Below, in pieces: positions 284 through 33,266 of a stretch of DNA of 47,784 nt (position 1 is its first letter; each line of letters opens with the position of its first letter). The position numbers and the translations under genes were made by a program. Below the pieces are notes generated by a model. That model saw nothing but the letters and a program-made list of their open reading frames with translations, did no database searches and was not told where the DNA came from. This DNA comes from a virus. The DNA is taken from the UHGV virus genome UHGV-1372857; one strand, 5' to 3'.

Positions 284-1039
284 ATGCCCGGAATCATTGT
301 TGCACAAAATTTCAATAATACCGCGTTGCCGGCGGGGGAAAGTCTGGCATCGGCGCTGATTGCCGACTCAGGCGTAAAAAACTGGTTTCAGGCCGATGCG
401 AATTCAGTAACGCTGAGTGGTAATGATATTGTCTCATTCAACGATCGGAAAGGGACCGCCAGCAAGTTGACCCGCGCTGATGCAGCCAATGGCGCAACCC
501 TGGTCAGCAACGCATTTGGACAATACTCCGGGGCCAGATTCAACGCATCAGAATCTGATCGCTCTTTATTCAGCGGAGATGTGCTGGATTTAACGCAGCC
601 ATTCAGTTGGTCAGGTGTGGCCACACTAAGGGCGCTGGCGGCATCAAGTAACCTTTGTGGTACATTCACCTCCTCGTCTGTTCGGGCCATACTCAACGTA
701 AGCCCCACTACCAACGCCGGGAAATTACAGTTTCTGTATGGGTCAGCAAAATGCGTTGGCCCGACACTGGATCTTGATACGCCGTTTGCGTTCGTTTGTG
801 GTTATGATGGGACGAATATTTTCCTGCGCGTGAATGGTGTGATGGCATCCGTTGCTGCTGCTGGAAGTCCTTCCTCTTCGGCATTCGCCCTGGGCGCATT
901 ACCGGGTGGTTCTCAGTTCTGGGATGGTGACGTGTCCGACCTATTTCTGTGTACCGTCGCAATGAACACCAGTGCTGGAGCATCATTGCTCGCAAAACTG
1001 ACAGCCTTTTATAAAGACGTTTATGGACTGACGCTGTAA
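284..1039 (+). CDS. putative tail-fibre-associated / receptor-binding accessory protein (251 aa, Ser/Ala/Gly-rich, beta-rich lectin-like guess)
   Basis: ATG at 284, 5 nt after the stop of the fibre fragment. Last gene of the late rightward unit before the convergent terminator. No recognisable catalytic motif. Confidence 0.35.
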   Translation: MPGIIVAQNFNNTALPAGESLASALIADSGVKNWFQADANSVTLSGNDIVSFNDRKGTASKLTRADAANGATLVSNAFGQYSGARFNASESDRSLFSGDVLDLTQPFSWSGVATLRALAASSNLCGTFTSSSVRAILNVSPTTNAGKLQFLYGSAKCVGPTLDLDTPFAFVCGYDGTNIFLRVNGVMASVAAAGSPSSSAFALGALPGGSQFWDGDVSDLFLCTVAMNTSAGASLLAKLTAFYKDVYGLTL

Positions 1040-1296
1040 CTGTACCGCCCGGTAACCGTATGGAAGAATTACCGGGCGGTCATAGCATCTATCATAGAAA
1101 TTGATATCTGAAACTTTCTTGATCTACCATTTCCATAAAACTACTGTATATAAAACAGTGTTTACCGGATGGTAGGTCATGCACCATCAGTCAGACATCG
1201 CCGAGAACTTGTTCAAGGCTGATGGAATGCATCATGGCCCTGAAACTGGAGCTTGGTTGACAATCGTTTTGCTGTATTGGTCCTTATTTAAATAAC

Positions 1297-1322: not shown

Positions 1323-1827
1323 TCAAAACGGGATATCATCATCAAAATCCATCGGCGGCTCGTTTGCCGGTGGTTTTTGTGTATTTGATGGTTGCTGAGG
1401 TTTACCCCATCCTGACTGCTGATTGCTTCCTGATTGTTGTCGCTGCTGTGATTGTTGGTTTCCATTATCACTTGATTTACCACCAATCATTTGCATAACG
1501 CCGTTCATCGGCTGCAAGACAATTTCAGTAGTGTATTTTTCAACACCGCTTTGATCTGTCCATTTTCGAGTGCGTAATTTACCCTCTATGTATACCTGAG
1601 AGCCTTTGCGCAGGTATTCGCCAGCCACCTCTGCCAGCTTATCCGAAGATAACAACGCGATGCCATTCAGTTTGCTCTTTCTTTTCACCTGTGGCCTTGT
1701 CATTCCACTGTTCTGACGTTGCCAGAGAAAGGTTGCACACAGCGCCGCCAGATGGCATATATTTAACCTCAGGGTCTTGTCCGAGAGTGCCCAAAATGAT
1801 TACTTTGTTGATTCCGCGAGATGCCAT
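1323..1827 (-). CDS. ssb: single-stranded DNA-binding protein SSB, interrupted by an apparent 1-nt insertion (frameshift) near 1640-1645
   Basis: Two overlapping ORFs (1639..1827 and 1323..1703) together give an E. coli-like SSB: [28 protein letters not shown]…WHRVVIFG | (D)[32 protein letters not shown]…[11 protein letters not shown]. Total length 505 nt is not a multiple of 3. Expected ttc ggN aag ctg is read as ttc gga taa gct g. Confidence 0.85.
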
Positions 1828-1836
1828 AATTTACCC

Positions 1837-2877
1837 TTAAAAGTTTTCGATGTTCTGTTGAGATGTTGATGACTTCTCTTCGTTTGCAGATGACGTAGGC
1901 GCATCTGCTTTCTGGAGTTTTGCCGGGTTGAAATCGTCCTGCGGCGTGATAGTTACAGCTGCTGGAGGTTCATCATTAATGAATGATTCAATGCGCTCAT
2001 ACTCTTCTGCTGATGCCTTGAGGGTTGACCATATTTCCCTGATTTTCTTTTTGACTGAATCTGGAATATTTGCAGCCTCAGCATTCAGTGCTGCAACTCC
2101 GCGTGAAGCGGTCATTTGCAACTTAGAACGCCAGTGCTCAAACTCCTCATCAATCTTAACACCAGACTCAACCCATTTAATTAAACCTCGCCCATGAGCT
2201 TCACCAATATATCCATGATGCTGACTATCTCGGCCAGATTCAAAAAATATCGGGCGCAGTTCTTCTGGTAGCTTGGTAAAATCCTGCACCTTTCCGTTGT
2301 CATACATCATCATGCTGACGGTCATTTCAAACATAAAATCCTTTTCACAGACCGGGTGCAGACCAAGTGGCATAGGGTCTTTGGGGTTGCTGAAGTCGGT
2401 TTTATTGCGTGCACGCAGGCACACGATGATATGCATATTACTCTGCAATAGCGCACTCATGAACTTCTTATGCTCAGCCTTGGCGCGCTTCCAGTCTGCC
2501 ATTTTTTTTCCTTGCAGCAGCGGCTGATCGGCAATATCTGAACAGCCACCCTCACCCTCCCACTCATGCGAACCGGAATCGATAACCAGCACTTTAACGC
2601 CTGCTTTCTGAAACTCTTCGATAGCCTGGCGATAACGGGCAGGACTAAATGGCGCATACAAATCAGCATGCAGGAATTTTCCATCAAGGATATTTGAATA
2701 AAGACGTCCGCGACCGTTTTCCGTGTCCAGAAAACCTATTTCAGATGGTGAGTCAACCATGCCGCGCGCAAGCTTGAGTGCGCTGTATGTCTTCCCACTA
2801 CCAGACTGGCCGGAGATGCCAATCACTACGCGAGAACCTGAACGTTCAGCAGGTTTGATATCAAGAATTCCCATCAC
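1837..2877 (-). CDS. P-loop ATPase, RecA-fold recombination-associated (Sak4-like / phage nucleotide-binding protein family)
   Basis: Walker A GISGQSGSGKT at residues 20-30. Lies between ssb and a nuclease in the replication/recombination module. 346 aa. Confidence 0.55.
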   Translation of the reverse strand: MMGILDIKPAERSGSRVVIGISGQSGSGKTYSALKLARGMVDSPSEIGFLDTENGRGRLYSNILDGKFLHADLYAPFSPARYRQAIEEFQKAGVKVLVIDSGSHEWEGEGGCSDIADQPLLQGKKMADWKRAKAEHKKFMSALLQSNMHIIVCLRARNKTDFSNPKDPMPLGLHPVCEKDFMFEMTVSMMMYDNGKVQDFTKLPEELRPIFFESGRDSQHHGYIGEAHGRGLIKWVESGVKIDEEFEHWRSKLQMTASRGVAALNAEAANIPDSVKKKIREIWSTLKASAEEYERIESFINDEPPAAVTITPQDDFNPAKLQKADAPTSSANEEKSSTSQQNIENF

Positions 2878-13829: not shown

Positions 13830-13977
13830 ACTATCAATGTCACTAATGGCCTGTGCCATGCTCATGTTTGCTATGGGTGGTAAGTCAAACGAGATTGCAT
13901 TTGCGATATGGGGCATCATGTTCATGATGTCAGCGACAATAATTACTATTGTGGGAACATCCCGCCATGGCTCGTAA
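13822..13977 (+). CDS. small membrane protein (51 aa) overlapping the terL start
   Basis: MFKLSMSLMACAMLMFAMGG…IWGIMFMMSATIITIVG. ATG follows gagggtgaga. Confidence 0.3.
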   Translation: MFKLSMSLMACAMLMFAMGGKSNEIAFAIWGIMFMMSATIITIVGTSRHGS

Positions 13978-15391
13978 ACGCCTATCTGCACTGGCAATCG
14001 AAAAGCTGGAGTCGCAGGTGGATGATGCGCTGACCGATGTTGCCGAGTCGGCTATCTTCGGCATCTGCGATATGCAGAAGAATGTCATCAAGCGCCTCAG
14101 AATGACTGCTAACGGCGTTGAAGATGTCACCCATGCAACCACGCAGGCCGATCACTTAATCCCCGCAAAACTCGAAAGGCTGCTTTATCCGAAGCGTAAT
14201 AAGGTCGTCTTTGGTGGTCGCGCATCAACAAAGACCCGTACCGTGGCAACCATACTCACCGAGTCCGCGCGATTCAGGCCAGAGCGTATTGGCTGCTTTC
14301 GTGAAATTCAGCAGTCTATCGAGGATTCCAGCTATCAGGAGCTGGTAGATGAAATCGACCGCAAAGGCGAATCATCGGAATATCGCTGCATCGACGGCAA
14401 GATAACCCACAAGCGAACCAAATCAAAATTCAGGTTCCGCGGCCTTTATCGCAACATCACCGGTGTCAAGGGTTTCGCCGGGATATCAAAAGCATGGGTG
14501 GAAGAAGCTGAAAACGTCAGCCAGGCATCCTGGGACATCCTCGAGCCTACCATCCGCGCAGAAGGTTCTGAGATATGGGTGACGTTTAACCCCAACAAAG
14601 AAACCGATGCCACATGGACTCAGTGGGTGGCGCCATATTACGATAAGATGGTTGATGGCATCTATGAGGACGATGACACATTAATCATTGAGTGTAATTA
14701 CCGCGACAACCCGTGGTTTTATGACACCCCGCTCCCGGCATCCATGGAGAAAATGAAGGCAGTCGACTTCGACCGTTACCTCTGGATTTGGGAAGGTAAA
14801 TTCAACAAGCGCAGCGACGAGCAGGTATTCGGTGGCAAATGGCGCACAGCATCGTTCGAGGTTAAACCTGAATGGCATGGCCCTTATCACGGCATGGACT
14901 TCGGTTTCAGTGGCGACCCTGCCGCAATGGTTGAGGTGTGGGTGGAAAACCTGCCCGGCGACCGGCGCAACGTTTATATTAATCGCGAGTATGGCAAGGT
15001 TCATCTTGAGATTACCGACCACCCGGCAGCAATGGACCAGGCATTTCCGATGGCACGTAAGGCCCGCTGGTATGCTGACTCATCAAGGCCGGAAACCATC
15101 AGTCACATCAAGCGCGCTGGCTTTGACATTCATCCATGCAACAAATGGCCTGGCAGCGTTGAGGATGGTGTGACGTGGCTCAGAGGCTGCGACAACATCA
15201 TCATTCACGACCGCTGCACGGAAATGAAAAACGAGGCTGCGATGTACAGCCACAAGGTCGACAAGAACACCGGCCTTGTGCTCACTGAAATCGTTGATAA
15301 ATACAACCACTATTGGGATGCTGTGCGCTATGCGCTGAATGACTACATTGTGCAACGAGGCTCTGGATGGATTAGGCGAAGCAGGAAATAA
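13967..15391 (+). CDS. terL: terminase large subunit
   Basis: Walker A-like GGRASTKT, a C-terminal nuclease-like region and ~475 aa. The ORF-track start 13949 is TTG; ATG at 13967 with ggga RBS is more likely. Confidence 0.85.
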   Translation: MARKRLSALAIEKLESQVDDALTDVAESAIFGICDMQKNVIKRLRMTANGVEDVTHATTQADHLIPAKLERLLYPKRNKVVFGGRASTKTRTVATILTESARFRPERIGCFREIQQSIEDSSYQELVDEIDRKGESSEYRCIDGKITHKRTKSKFRFRGLYRNITGVKGFAGISKAWVEEAENVSQASWDILEPTIRAEGSEIWVTFNPNKETDATWTQWVAPYYDKMVDGIYEDDDTLIIECNYRDNPWFYDTPLPASMEKMKAVDFDRYLWIWEGKFNKRSDEQVFGGKWRTASFEVKPEWHGPYHGMDFGFSGDPAAMVEVWVENLPGDRRNVYINREYGKVHLEITDHPAAMDQAFPMARKARWYADSSRPETISHIKRAGFDIHPCNKWPGSVEDGVTWLRGCDNIIIHDRCTEMKNEAAMYSHKVDKNTGLVLTEIVDKYNHYWDAVRYALNDYIVQRGSGWIRRSRK

Positions 15392-15423: not shown

Positions 15424-15756
15424 TCAATTGCAAAGCTGAATGCTTTTCCATGTTTTAAATGGGACACCTATCGCCTCCCAGAACTCCTTATCTTCAGCAG
15501 CAATTAATCTAAAAAAATCTCCCATCTTCCAATAAGAGCCATTTTTTATTGACTCACGCTCCTCGTTAAGTTTTTCAACAAAGTGCTCAGTCCATGTGCA
15601 ATCTTCATTCCAATTAGATTTAACGCCGTTGTAGAGTGAGTGAATAAAGCGATCAACGTATGACGACTTACTAACCTCAATCCCCATTAAAACCATATTT
15701 ATTACGCGAACCGCATATAAGTTTTGTAATTCAGTAGTACGTTCTTGATATTGCAT
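15424..15756 (-). CDS. hypothetical protein (110 aa), moron between terL and portal
   Basis: Opposite-strand ORF with its own TTGACG-17-TAGATT promoter (15833-15801) and a terminator. Confidence 0.5.
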   Translation of the reverse strand: MQYQERTTELQNLYAVRVINMVLMGIEVSKSSYVDRFIHSLYNGVKSNWNEDCTWTEHFVEKLNEERESIKNGSYWKMGDFFRLIAAEDKEFWEAIGVPFKTWKSIQLCN

Positions 15757-15844: not shown

Positions 15845-16135
15845 TCATTTGTAAAGCCAGCAATGAATCCCCGCATTGCGCATGGCGGCATAAATCACAT
15901 CATCAGACACGACCGCCATTGCCACCCTTTCTGCGTCAATCTGCTGGTGCGAAGCCATGATGTCATCATAGAAAATATCGTTAGCATGCAGCCATTCATA
16001 CGCATGCTTTGCCCTCATGATAAGCACATCATGCCCGGCAGAGTAGAGTGACTTAGCCAGTGCGACGTTGCCAGCAATAGCATTTCCTTCCGCATCGCGC
16101 AGCACACCATCAAGCTCGAAAATGACACATTTCAT
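15845..16135 (-). CDS. hypothetical protein (96 aa) with HAD-like motif remnants (FELDGVL … VVSDDV)
   Basis: The DxDGxL-like motif I has Glu in place of the first Asp, and a GDxxxD-like motif IV is present. Too short for a full HAD hydrolase. Own promoter TTGACGTAGATT-N11-TAGATT at 16187-16160 (minus strand). Confidence 0.4.
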   Translation of the reverse strand: MKCVIFELDGVLRDAEGNAIAGNVALAKSLYSAGHDVLIMRAKHAYEWLHANDIFYDDIMASHQQIDAERVAMAVVSDDVIYAAMRNAGIHCWLYK

Positions 16136-16159
16136 AAGATTTCTCCGAGAGGTTTCATT

Positions 16160-16192
16160 TTAATCTACGCCATGCTAGAATCTACGTCAAGG
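16160..16192. promoter_or_regulatory. two motif copies (ttAATCTACGCCatg, agAATCTACGTCAag) in the divergent region between 16135 (minus) and 16224 (plus)
   Basis: The minus strand reads TTGACGTAGATT-N11-TAGATT. Confidence 0.45.
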
Positions 16193-16223
16193 CGCATTGA
16201 CATAACTACATCACCGGGGCATC

Positions 16224-16517
16224 ATGAAGGCATACTCATCTTTTTCGTGGGAGCAGAAGGAAAAAATATACTCACTCGCAAGAGCTGGTGTGTCGGATGA
16301 GGCGCTGTGCGAAAGGTATGATGTTGATGAGGCTATCCTGCTGCGTATGTATGATGAGGTGCTGTGTGAGTTGCAGCGGCGCCGGGGATACAGTGGACTG
16401 AAGACGATTAATGATTTCTTTCGGAACGTTGATTTGATTGGTGATGGTGATGATAAAGAAAAAGCTGCAAATGAAGATGCGCAAAGCCGCAATGGAGAAG
16501 TACACGAAAAAAATTGA
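16224..16517 (+). CDS. small HTH-like regulatory protein (97 aa)
   Basis: KEKIYSLARAGVSDEALCERYDVDEAILLRM resembles an HTH. First gene of the plus-strand accessory operon. Confidence 0.4.
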   Translation: MKAYSSFSWEQKEKIYSLARAGVSDEALCERYDVDEAILLRMYDEVLCELQRRRGYSGLKTINDFFRNVDLIGDGDDKEKAANEDAQSRNGEVHEKN

Positions 16518-16857
16518 TATTAGTTTTATTGATGGCGTCGGCATGTACAATCACGCCTGCCATCTGAATGCAGTTAATCGCGCAAGAGCAGGAAACAGCG
16601 CAGCCGTGGTTGAGGTTGTTATGATTAATGACGACTCAGTAACAGCGCATTACATCAATATGCAGACCGATGGTAAATATGTTGATTACACCCTTGGATG
16701 GCACTGGTCAGGGGCTGATTACCGATTTGTGCGATACGTTCCTTTCACTGAATGGAGTGATATAACAAGTTCTCTTGATCGACTCAAGGTAGAACTTTGT
16801 AAGCCAGTCAGCAAATGGATGCGCGCCTTTATGTTAACTAATAACGAAATGTGTTGA
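16492..16857 (+). CDS. hypothetical protein (~121 aa; start uncertain, 16438/16471/16492/16543 all possible)
   Basis: Overlaps the end of the preceding ORF in another frame. Sits upstream of the HigA-like gene and is a candidate non-canonical partner. Confidence 0.4.
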   Translation: MEKYTKKIDISFIDGVGMYNHACHLNAVNRARAGNSAAVVEVVMINDDSVTAHYINMQTDGKYVDYTLGWHWSGADYRFVRYVPFTEWSDITSSLDRLKVELCKPVSKWMRAFMLTNNEMC

Positions 16858-16865
16858 GGTGATTT

Positions 16866-17033
16866 ATGATTATTGAAGATGAAACCAAAACGTCAATGTG
16901 CGCAATAGCTATTAAATTTGGTCCTGAATTAGTGATTACGCAGGGGTGTGACGCTATTATCATCGACCAGCAGCAGGCCGCGCAGCTTTTCGAGGCTCTG
17001 CAACGCTGGGTTGATGATGAGGAGATTGAGTGA
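16866..17033 (+). CDS. hypothetical small protein (55 aa)
   Basis: Its stop overlaps the HigA-like start (TGATG). Confidence 0.35.
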   Translation: MIIEDETKTSMCAIAIKFGPELVITQGCDAIIIDQQQAAQLFEALQRWVDDEEIE

Positions 17034-17350
17034 TGTATATCAAAGACCCGATGCATCCAGGAGAATTCCTGTTAAGTGTTTTCATGAAGCCATATGGCAT
17101 CACTTGCGAGGAAATGGCAAGGAATCTAGGCGTATCCCCGTCAACTATCAGCAGGATTACAAGTAAGAAGATGAACTTGACTGCTGGTATGGCTATGCGC
17201 CTTTCTATCGTGGTTGGCAGGACGCCTGAGTCTTGGATGAACATGCAGAATAACTACAGCCTGAGACAATTCATCAATGATGATAAATCGGAGCTATCAT
17301 CTTTAAGGCCAATGAAATTTGAGGCCGTATTTGATAATGAGGCCGAGTGA
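17030..17350 (+). CDS. higA: HigA-family antitoxin-like XRE HTH protein (addiction-module antidote protein), orphan
   Basis: MMYIKDPMHPGEFLLSVFMKPYGITCEEMARNLGVSPSTISRITSKKMNLTAGMAMRLSIVVGRTPESWMNMQNNYSL matches the HigA (COG3093/VapI) pattern, H-P-G-(E/D)-hh…L…EhA..hGhSPST.SRhh.GK..hT..MAh+LS.hhG.oPE.WhNhQ..Y.L. No HigB-like gene is adjacent. Confidence 0.75.
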   Translation: MMYIKDPMHPGEFLLSVFMKPYGITCEEMARNLGVSPSTISRITSKKMNLTAGMAMRLSIVVGRTPESWMNMQNNYSLRQFINDDKSELSSLRPMKFEAVFDNEAE

Positions 17351-17538
17351 TGAGCATTTACTTTTATCGTGGTCATATTGAGGAGCCAGCATCCGGGCGA
17401 AATGTTGGTAACTTCTGCGGGACTGTAACGGCCTCTGATGCCGTAAAGGGCTTTAATGCTGCTTACGTCAAGCAAGTTCAATGCATTAACTCAAAAGGCG
17501 GCAGCGGTGAGATTGTGACATTGTTGCGCGTATCATGA
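17347..17538 (+). CDS. hypothetical protein (63 aa) coupled downstream of the HigA-like gene
   Basis: ATG overlaps the higA-like stop (gagtgATGagc). Confidence 0.4.
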   Translation: MMSIYFYRGHIEEPASGRNVGNFCGTVTASDAVKGFNAAYVKQVQCINSKGGSGEIVTLLRVS

Positions 17539-17568
17539 CCACATCCAGCGGTTACGCCATGCTATAAT

Positions 17569-17591
17569 CCCATCCATGCGATGGGATTTTT
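17569..17591 (+). terminator. rho-independent terminator (CCCATC catgc GATGGG atttttt)
   Basis: 6-bp stem followed by a T-run, just upstream of the portal gene. An extended -10 (TGcTATAAT, 17561-17569) sits immediately 5' of the hairpin. Confidence 0.55.
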
Positions 17592-17603
17592 TATGGTGAC
17601 GAA

Positions 17604-19058
17604 ATGTCAAAGTTAGAGGCGGTAAACGCCTATATTCAGCAGCGAGTGGCGAACAATAACAGACTCATCGAGCGGCAGCGCCGGGAGTTTGGCGGTGTAA
17701 ACATAGACCAAAAGCACACCCGACTGTATGTCGAATGCGGCTACCCTGAAGAAATCACCGCCGAGATGTTCCGCTATGCCTATGAGCGCTATGCACCGGC
17801 AACAGCTGGCGTCAATCGCGTACTCGATAAGTGCTGGCAGACTTCGCCGCAAATCCTTCAGGAAGGCGCCGATGATAAAGCAAGCACCCCGTGGGAGAAG
17901 GCCGCCAATAAGCTGTTTAAGCGTGCTGCGCCATTCATCAAGGATGCAGACCGGCGCAACCTCATCAACCGCTATTCCGGCCTAATCCTGCAAATCCGAG
18001 ATGGGAAACAGTGGAGTGAGCCGGTAGACACCACGAAAACAAGACGCATCAAGGATGCTGCCATTATCCGTTACATTCCGGCGTGGGAAGAACAGCTTCG
18101 CGTTAGCGAATGGGAAAATGACGAATCCAGCGAAGACTATGGTCAGCCGAAGATGTACGAATATCAGGAGTCGGTAGTCGGCGCCTGCAATAGCGACGGC
18201 AAACCAACGCGCTCCCTGAGCATTCACCCTGACCGCGTCATCGTATTTGCCGAGGGTGCGATGGATGGCTCCATTTACTCTGGCGTCCCACTTCTTCGTG
18301 CTGGGTATAACCACCTCATCGACATGGCGAAAGTCACCGGTTCAAGCGCTGAGGGCTTCCTGAAGAATGCCAGTCGGCAGCTCAACGTTAATTATAATAA
18401 AGACAACGTTTCCGCTCAGTCTCTAGCTCAGCAAATGGGCGTGCCGCTGGAAGAGCTGGCAGATGTGCTCAATGAGGATGTGGCGCGCCTGAATGAGGCG
18501 ATTGACGCAGCGATGTTCACTATGGGCGCTGATGTCAAGGTGCTATCAGTGACGCCAGCCGACCCAGGCCCAACGTGGACTATTGCGGCCAACCAGTTTG
18601 CGGCATCCATCAAGAAGCCATTCACCATCCTGTTTGGTCAGCAGACTGGCCGCCTTGCGTCCGATGAGGATAAAACCGACGACGCCATGAGCGCCAAACA
18701 GCGCCGTGAGGACTGGCTGGACTACATCATCTCGGTATTCATTGACCGGATGATTTCCTTTGGCATTCTGGACAAGGCGCCAGAGAGCGGTTATTACTGC
18801 AAATGGGACGACCTGCTTGCACCTTCCGAGCTGAACAAGGCCGACCTGCTAGTCAAACTTGCCACCGCAAACAAATCTGTATTCGACGCAGGCCAGATGG
18901 CCCTGATGACCGCAGATGAGATGCGCGGCATTGTTGGCATGGAGCCTCTGGAAGAGCAGCTTCCTGAAGGATTGCAGGAAGGTCAGCAGCAACAACAAGA
19001 CCAGCAATCGCAGCAAGACCAACAGCAGGGCCAGACTGATGCGCCTCCTCAAAATTAA
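17604..19058 (+). CDS. portal protein
   Basis: 484 aa, directly downstream of terminase with an accessory island in between. Gln-rich C-terminus ([17 protein letters not shown]). Confidence 0.7.
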
Positions 19059-33237: not shown

Positions 33238-33266
33238 ACTATAGCGACACCCTCAATCTACGTCAA
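33238..33266 (-). promoter_or_regulatory. sigma70 promoter TTGACG-17-TATAGT (minus strand) for the 33215..31279 block
   Basis: TTGACG at 33266-33261, a 17-bp spacer, TATAGT at 33243-33238, then RBS agaggtg. Confidence 0.65.

Follow-up and report, generated by a model that had tools for sequence, protein, structure and literature searches.

A lone HigA-family antitoxin homologue, apparently an exchangeable cassette, between the terminase and portal genes of a Klebsiella siphophage

The virus genome UHGV-1372857 (47,784 nucleotides, analysed over its whole length and hereafter called the window) is a siphophage genome of ~47.8 kb that encodes, between its terminase large subunit and portal genes, a homologue of the HigA antitoxins with a helix-turn-helix (HTH) domain. 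The gene is the fourth member of a plus-strand accessory unit of five genes, which we refer to as A, B, C, HigA, and D (Table 1), and two minus-strand genes also sit between the terminase gene and this block. A first-pass annotation, made from the sequence alone, had already placed HigA between terminase and portal, and this location is confirmed. It had described a four-gene translationally coupled operon; the block is compact and partly coupled in this way, but it comprises five open reading frames (ORFs), with the 97-amino acid (aa) ORF (phrog_13301) as its conserved first gene. A Shine-Dalgarno-like sequence precedes every gene of the unit. Coupling to three neighbours through ATGA or TGATG overlaps had also been proposed. 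TGATG stop-start overlaps are found at the C/HigA and HigA/D junctions, which are the only ones of the unit, but B and C lie 8 nucleotides (nt) apart, with a GAGGTGA ribosome-binding site in the gap, and A and B share 26-68 nt, which they read in different frames. Three gene starts were revised. Homologues show that HigA starts at ATG 17033 (MYIKDP...) rather than at GTG 17030 and that D starts at ATG 17350 (MSIYF...) rather than at GTG 17347; the ORF read as 121 aa from 16492 most likely starts at 16450 and encodes 135 aa, because most full-length homologues are 135 aa long and align from that methionine.

The closest relatives are Klebsiella phages, including vB_Kpn_F14, KP591P1, BUCT610, and VLCpiS13d, with 92-96% nucleotide identity, each over part of the block only. 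One paper places these phages in a proposed Roufvirinae/Skatevirinae group whose members have no integrase, are predicted to be virulent, and show strong mosaicism (PMC11769527). In the GenBank phage set, coverage of the block stays below 80% for every record, and the window's exact combination of neighbour cassettes is not present. We compared the block with its counterparts in nine GenBank phages and six metagenomic phages with a HigA of the same clade (all-against-all protein comparison) and, by tblastn, in the best 60 of 161 records; absence of HigA from a relative refers throughout to this block.

Table 1. Features of the accessory block and its surroundings in the window, and lone HigA genes at three other phage loci
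Sequence	Position	Strand	Feature	Basis
Window	13949..15391	+	Terminase large subunit	
Window	15424..15756	minus	Small gene, 5' of block	
Window	15845..16135	minus	96-aa ORF, 5' of block	
Window	16163..16180	+	Putative promoter: phage-wide motif ATCTACGCCA, then TGcTAGAAT (extended -10-like)	Motif only
Window	16224..16517	+	Gene A, 97 aa, small helix-rich protein; elsewhere annotated InsA-C-terminal-like	phrog_13301, E 4e-40 over residues 1-68
Window	16450..16857	+	Gene B, 135 aa, phage-only family, predicted papain/transglutaminase-like fold	
Window	16866..17033	+	Gene C, 55 aa, variable N-terminus, conserved C-terminal helix ...DKHQAAQLIEVLQRWVDGEEIE	phrog_13627, E 1e-13; alignment
Window	17028..17035	+	Left cassette junction GAGTGATG: Glu codon, TGA stop of C, overlapping HigA ATG	
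Window	17033..17350	+	HigA-family XRE-HTH antitoxin homologue, 105 aa, no toxin partner	TIGR02607, PDB matches, dN/dS, DNA-contact residues
Window	17345..17352	+	Right cassette junction GAGTGATG: Glu codon, TGA stop of HigA, overlapping D ATG	
Window	17350..17538	+	Gene D, 62 aa, small phage-only protein	phrog_26739, E 5e-8; alignment
Window	17566..17598	+	Intrinsic-terminator-like hairpin: 9-bp stem AATCCCATC/GATGGGATT, 5-nt loop, then T-run TTTTTATGGTG; closes the unit before portal	
Window	17604..19058		Portal gene	
L095 (ICP1)	1492..1785		Lone HigA, no HigB detected	
L007 (Aes012)	1992..2282		Lone HigA, no HigB detected	
L104 (Stx phage PA2)	801..1106		Lone HigA, no HigB detected	

The protein is a HigA-family member by every sequence criterion tested, which bears out its first-pass identification. 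It matches the NCBIfam equivalog TIGR02607 ('HigA family addiction module antitoxin') with 92.9 bits against a curated cutoff of 47.7 (E 8e-27, model positions 3-77 of 81), Pfam HTH_3 with 30.7 bits (cutoff 23), and PHROG 1381 ('plasmid antitoxin with HTH domain') with an E-value of 1e-22. Matching solved structures (4mcx, 6f8s, 2icp, and 3trb; E 2e-15 to 3e-9) are those of Proteus vulgaris HigA, Pseudomonas putida GraA, E. coli CFT073 HigA, and Coxiella VapI, with E ~1e-15 for the best HigA and GraA matches. The five-helix HigA architecture can be recognised in the sequence, with an N-terminal HPGE motif, a central HTH, a predicted long C-terminal dimerisation helix, and a length within the usual ~95-105 aa. 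Residues 6-83 align to GraA without gaps and to P. vulgaris HigA with a single gap, and H8, P9, G10, and E11 are invariant among phage, plasmid, and T4-like members.

P. vulgaris HigA contacts its operator DNA through Ser23, Thr34, Ala36, Thr37, Ser39, Arg40, and Lys45, and Arg40 makes the sole base-specific contact (PMC12266136). The corresponding phage residues (Thr24, Ser35, Ser37, Thr38, Ser40, Arg41, and Lys46) are conserved or conservatively replaced, the changes being S23T, T34S, and A36S, and S35, S37, S40, and R41 are invariant in the HigA family alignment. GraA contacts its toxin GraT through 13 residues (PMC6393540); in the ungapped alignment, the phage protein is identical at four of these positions and has conservative hydrophobic replacements at six. 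It also has, in conserved form, the N- and C-terminal segments that become ordered in P. vulgaris HigA when HigB binds (PMC12266136). With the DNA-contact residues and most of those of the toxin pocket kept, the two functional surfaces of the antitoxin look intact.

There is no toxin gene to go with it. We built a hidden Markov model (HMM) from 49 bacterial HigB proteins that adjoin relatives of the phage HigA. This HMM has no match in any of the six reading frames of the entire window (best E 2.6), nor in 14 related phage loci and two P22-like contigs, and it recovers two Klebsiella plasmid HigB-like toxins as positive controls (1.5e-33 and 6e-22). The first-pass observation that no HigB/RelE-fold gene lies beside HigA therefore extends to the entire window. 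Searches against Pfam, NCBIfam, PADLOC, and PDB profiles assigned none of B, C, or D to a toxin family; PDB-sequence profile searches with the three families, of the kind suggested at first pass for uncovering a toxin among the neighbours, gave only noise (E >=0.5). PADLOC defence-system models found no component among the seven proteins checked, HigA included. C and D are also well short of the ~92-aa HigB-like toxins of bacterial loci. The toxin gene that defines a HigB-HigA module was looked for and is absent, and the locus is therefore not such a module.

The borders of HigA are marked by the 8-mer GAGTGATG, which has two plus-strand copies in the whole window, at 17028 and 17345. The same 8-mer joins C to D in phages that lack HigA; in KlebP_265, the sequence ...gagatcGAGTGATGagcatttac corresponds to the left half of the window's first junction and the right half of its second. 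In other HigA-bearing phages, the HigA junctions carry GAGTGATG or the variant GAATGATG, and elsewhere the site between C and D is either empty or occupied by a gene for a 98-aa membrane protein. From the flanking repeats, and from the same junction joining C and D where the gene is missing, we infer that HigA is a 317-bp cassette inserted precisely between C and D. HigA of the window and of VLCpiS13d (L002 1735..2052) are 96% identical as proteins with a synonymous divergence (dS) of 0.38, and the aligned parts of the two blocks share ~94% nucleotide identity. HigA dS thus lies far above the divergence of the backbone, which indicates that the cassette has been exchanged independently of it.

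This junction is not confined to HigA. The small genes of the block share the form GA(G/A)TGATG, a terminal glutamate codon and a TGA that overlaps the next ATG, in the window and at L001-L006, L012-L014, and L096-L103, and unrelated cassettes (C, HigA, D, and membrane proteins) all end in a glutamate directly before the stop. The pattern suggests that short junction homology drives cassette shuffling in a way that preserves translational coupling.

Orthologues of the window HigA in phages include VLCpiS13d gp05 (96%), Salmonella phage BS5 gp72 (85%), and E. coli phage Sa179lw gp62 (62%). Pairwise ratios of nonsynonymous to synonymous divergence (dN/dS) against these three are 0.04-0.12, with dS from 0.38 to saturation; HigA is under purifying selection across Klebsiella, Salmonella, and E. 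coli phages. The clade comprises ~30 protein clusters of 103-110 aa, many on phage-sized contigs of 45-49 kb and the rest on shorter fragments. The next phage relatives (~50% identity) lie in early regions of P22/lambda-like phages and have no HigB; at two P22-like loci (L008 3001..3291 and L009 855..1145), the lone HigA is flanked by DUF2737 and a NinX-like gene. Further lone HigA genes, more distantly related, are found in Vibrio phage ICP1, the T4-like Aeromonas phage Aes012, Erwinia and Klebsiella jumbo phages, and Stx phages. Its occurrence in unrelated virulent and temperate phages makes lone HigA a recurrent phage accessory gene. In searchable papers we found no functional study of a phage-encoded or orphan HigA, that of ICP1 included; text matches to 'HigA' in ICP1 papers were to the surname Higashi.

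Cellular relatives are more remote. In a scan of species-representative genomes, a query with the single protein found no close relative, and an alignment-based query, which used narrow peptide patterns and missed Enterobacterales chromosomes, gave 80 loci. These hold the nearest cellular relatives (36-53% identity), mostly from environmental Gammaproteobacteria, Planctomycetota, KSB1, and Ignavibacteria. At 62 of the 80 loci, an upstream ORF of the ~92-aa HigB 'killer protein' type (MIKSFKHKGL...NYEDYH) ends at the HigA start or a few bases from it; the family descends from genuine HigB-HigA pairs, of which the phage has the antitoxin half only. The best plasmid relatives (49% identity) are found on 3.6-kb Klebsiella and E. 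coli plasmids near a HigB-like RelE/ParE toxin. On these ColE1-type plasmids (L010 287..568 on the minus strand and 906..1199 on the plus strand; L011 likewise), the HigB-like toxin and HigA genes are divergent and ~340 bp apart, unlike the usual higB-higA operon.

Gene A is found in all 15 relatives examined. Conservation extends over residues 1-68, a stretch as long as the PHROG profile; the tail (residues 69-97) varies among relatives, overlaps the start of B in another frame, and is probably a recombination scar. A Pfam match of the C product to DUF7189 (18.5 bits) falls under the cutoff of 27 and was disregarded. The D protein is a chimera in which residues 1-53 belong to the D family and the last 9-13 residues (GGSGEIVTLLRVS) come from another small protein: this tail is identical to the C-terminus of a 52-aa phage protein encoded at L103 2021..2179 and L102 2175..2333, which fits a deletion or recombination through a shared GGSG-coding stretch. 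Proteins identical to the D product (P0066) occur on six contigs; a structure model of D, built from three sequences, is unreliable (predicted local distance difference test score of 62). Upstream of the block, the minus-strand 96-aa ORF is 98-99% conserved in all Klebsiella relatives and bears the annotation 'polynucleotide kinase' or 'phosphatase'. In the PHROG 415 profile, which has 218 positions, the 96 residues are spread over positions 21-164, so that much of the profile has no counterpart; instead of a kinase, the product may be a HAD-like phosphatase domain in truncated form.

The promoter-like site before gene A belongs to a motif class (ATCTACGYCA-N3-7-TAnnAT) that is also found upstream of other transcription units. 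With up to one mismatch, the 10-mer ATCTACRYCA has 34 copies in the window against 8.2 +/- 2.9 expected, mostly on the plus strand and in intergenic clusters; the sites include 6287/6311, 13181, 15804/15821, 16163/16180/16204, 21394/21418/21447, 24542/24568, 33196/33226/33256, 36628, and 38462. Many copies lie 3-7 nt 5' of a -10-like TAnnAT, as in ATCTACGCCAtgcTAGAAT at 16163 and ATCTACGTCAacacttTATGAT at 33256, and the distant relatives BS5 and Sa179lw retain the motif at the matching position. These sites look like a phage-specific class of promoters or regulator-binding sites.

Taken together, we consider it very probable (about 0.9) that the gene encodes a functional full-length HigA-family homologue on a stand-alone 317-bp cassette, within the variable five-gene block of a virulent Klebsiella siphophage, and that it is not part of a toxin-antitoxin (TA) pair. 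As to its role, we favour a trans-acting decoy against host HigB-type toxins, to which we give a probability of roughly 0.45. The phage HigA would be made during infection from the phage-type promoter, would dimerise as bacterial HigA does, and would act in trans on HigB-HigA-type modules of the host chromosome, plasmids, and prophages. Its conserved pocket would sequester HigB-like toxins, which are RelE-fold, ribosome-dependent mRNases and which would otherwise be freed once infection halts the resupply of labile host antitoxin. Translation would thereby be shielded from an abortive-infection response, and the intact HTH may additionally occupy host hig operators.

Several observations make such a role plausible. 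Plasmid-style addiction would be senseless for this group of phages, because they have no integrase and are predicted to be virulent (PMC11769527). Potential decoy targets exist, as plasmids within the host range carry HigB together with a 49%-identical HigA. Orphan antitoxin homologues of phages neutralise DarTG1 (PMC11825919), toxin-antitoxin-chaperone (TAC) systems, with HigBAC as one example, mediate antiphage defence (bioRxiv 10.1101/2024.02.24.581848), and orphan antitoxins are over-represented in plasmid anti-defence islands (PMC11541004). Other observations weigh against it. The closest host-range HigA that we found is just 49% identical, and type II antitoxins are usually specific; the species-representative genome scan, with its narrow peptide patterns, returned no Enterobacterales relative; all seven DNA-contact positions of P. 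vulgaris HigA are retained, which a pure protein decoy would not need; and PADLOC models of known defence systems do not match the phage HigA. Moreover, few of the 56 GenBank records that match the block (~30-35 distinct phages) carry HigA, and any benefit must therefore be conditional. A wider proposal, by which the ~105-aa phage HigA clade and the lone HigA of ICP1, T4-like, and jumbo phages would form a widespread anti-defence family neutralising HigB/RelE-type abortive-infection toxins, with the acidic tail and the junctions as adaptations for stability and rapid exchange, strikes us as rather unlikely.

HigA may instead, or in addition, be a DNA-binding regulator that works through its HTH, either as an Aca-like repressor that tunes the accessory block or as a host-takeover repressor of hig-type operators or defence loci; the two roles are not mutually exclusive, and we hold this one, the main rival of the decoy, to be possible, if tentatively. 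It would explain the conserved or conservatively replaced DNA contacts, among them the counterpart of the base-specific Arg40, and HigA and GraA can each act alone as a strong autorepressor (PMC12266136, PMC6393540). Like AcrIIA1, three of the ten Aca families are similar to the antitoxin HigA2 or GraA; an Aca gene is typically found 3' of small anti-defence genes within the same operon, a layout similar to the one seen here (PMC9410906). Solo HigA-like proteins such as YbaQ and VapI also exist in bacteria (2eby and 3trb matches). The upstream region speaks against it, at least as an autoregulator. The 90 bp before the block contain no operator-type inverted repeat, and the single inverted repeat within 16100..16260 spans a minus-strand gene start and is not operator-like. 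Palindromes of the P. vulgaris type (TGTA-Nx-TACA) occur at chance level across the window, with none near the block. The autoregulatory operator of a type II system was thus not found, a weak negative since the specificity of the phage HigA could differ. The 1-nt overlap of C and HigA leaves no space for a promoter between them. Furthermore, relatives do not differ by a single base in the region upstream of the block, whether they carry HigA or not. Close relatives with the same promoter and neighbours have the gene only sporadically, and it is therefore not a required regulator of the block.

The first-pass annotation also raised the idea of a new TA-like module, in which B, C, or D would be a non-canonical toxin restrained by HigA. 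The TGATG overlaps that couple C, HigA, and D would suit such a module, but the distribution of the genes makes it highly improbable. A homologue of C is recognisable in 14 of the 15 relatives, whether HigA is present or not, and the corresponding slot of DP01 holds an ORF of the same size (matched by size); the closest homologue (89%) is in SCNJ1-C, which has no HigA. Homologues of D occur in the HigA-less phages KlebP_265, DP01, and SCNJ1-C, the first and last of which have the closest ones among GenBank phages (85%). D directly follows C in HigA-less F14, KlebP_265, DP01, and KP591P1, and the two are adjacent by tblastn coordinates in SeSz-2, LPST10, and D10; conversely, VLCpiS13d, Sa179lw, and L099 have HigA without D. 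B and HigA are found together in the window, Sa179lw, and L096, and B without HigA in F14 and KP591P1. At least seven phages (VLCpiS13d, BS5, and five from metagenomes) have HigA and no B; in two of them, an HslV-like peptidase gene occupies the B slot. Given this co-occurrence pattern, we reject B as a HigA-dependent papain-like toxin. HigA-less relatives thus carry the 135-, 55-, and 62-aa genes, and the 135-aa and the 62-aa gene are each missing from some HigA-bearing phages; the lack of any toxin-family match and the small size of C and D add to the case against a module. Judged by gene content, the neighbours come and go independently of HigA, each flanking gene being a cassette of its own. 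No more credible is a decaying remnant of a captured higBA module with no current function, which the missing toxin gene and the patchy distribution might suggest but which the low dN/dS at such dS values, the intact frame in all these protein clusters, and the conserved ribosome-binding site and coupled junction contradict.

Both PHROGs and GenBank phage records already contain annotated members of the gene family, and phage orphan antitoxins are an established concept; lone HigA is common in phages, and there is nothing unusual about the sequence of the window HigA. If it is a decoy, HigB-HigA modules, which are among the commonest TA families of Enterobacteriaceae, would matter for defence against Klebsiella phages, and the cassette would offer a simple marker gene to help predict which therapeutic phages escape HigB-HigA. 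If it is a regulator, the finding is routine. Near-isogenic phages with the cassette (the window phage, VLCpiS13d, and BS5) and without it (F14, KlebP_265, and DP01) amount to a natural experiment.

Among known systems, HigA of P. vulgaris Rts1 and GraA of P. putida (TIGR02607-type; PDB 4MCX, 6W6U, and 6F8S) resemble the phage protein with ~40-45% identity over a 75-residue core, and they share its length of ~100 aa, the HPGE motif, the HTH DNA contacts, and, for the most part, the hydrophobic toxin-binding pocket. Unlike them, the phage HigA has no upstream HigB/GraT gene and no recognisable autoregulatory operator, is encoded by a virulent phage among unrelated small genes, and has an acidic C-terminal tail particular to its clade (...FEAVFDNEAE), the end of which lies in the cassette junction. 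From PHROG 1381, which is placed in the moron/host-takeover category and includes the ICP1 'HigA' ORF97.2 and Aes012 gp240, the window HigA shows no substantive difference, and it belongs there; its orthologues lie in the same terminase-portal region, and the phage members examined are likewise without HigB. The Aca repressors are comparable as small HTH proteins among small accessory genes of a mobile element, and Aca6, Aca9, and Aca10 resemble HigA2, while the HTH-containing AcrIIA1 resembles GraA (PMC9410906). Pfam, NCBIfam, and PADLOC searches match the neighbours of the phage HigA to no known family, and, unlike an Aca gene, it has no known Acr neighbour, no promoter-proximal inverted repeat, and a promoter that is unchanged in HigA-less relatives.

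T4 Dmd, which counters RnlA and LsoA, exemplifies antitoxin-type counter-defence by a phage. The DarG-like enzymes that phages direct against DarTG1 (PMC11825919) are a second case in which a virulent phage carries an antitoxin, or a mimic of one, without the toxin. In both cases the activity is experimentally shown and concerns other toxin families, whereas the target and effect of the phage HigA are those proposed here; DarG-like proteins also act enzymatically, whereas the phage HigA would act by sequestration. What it shares with such orphan-antitoxin counter-defence genes is an antitoxin homologue, encoded without its toxin, in the variable region of a virulent phage.

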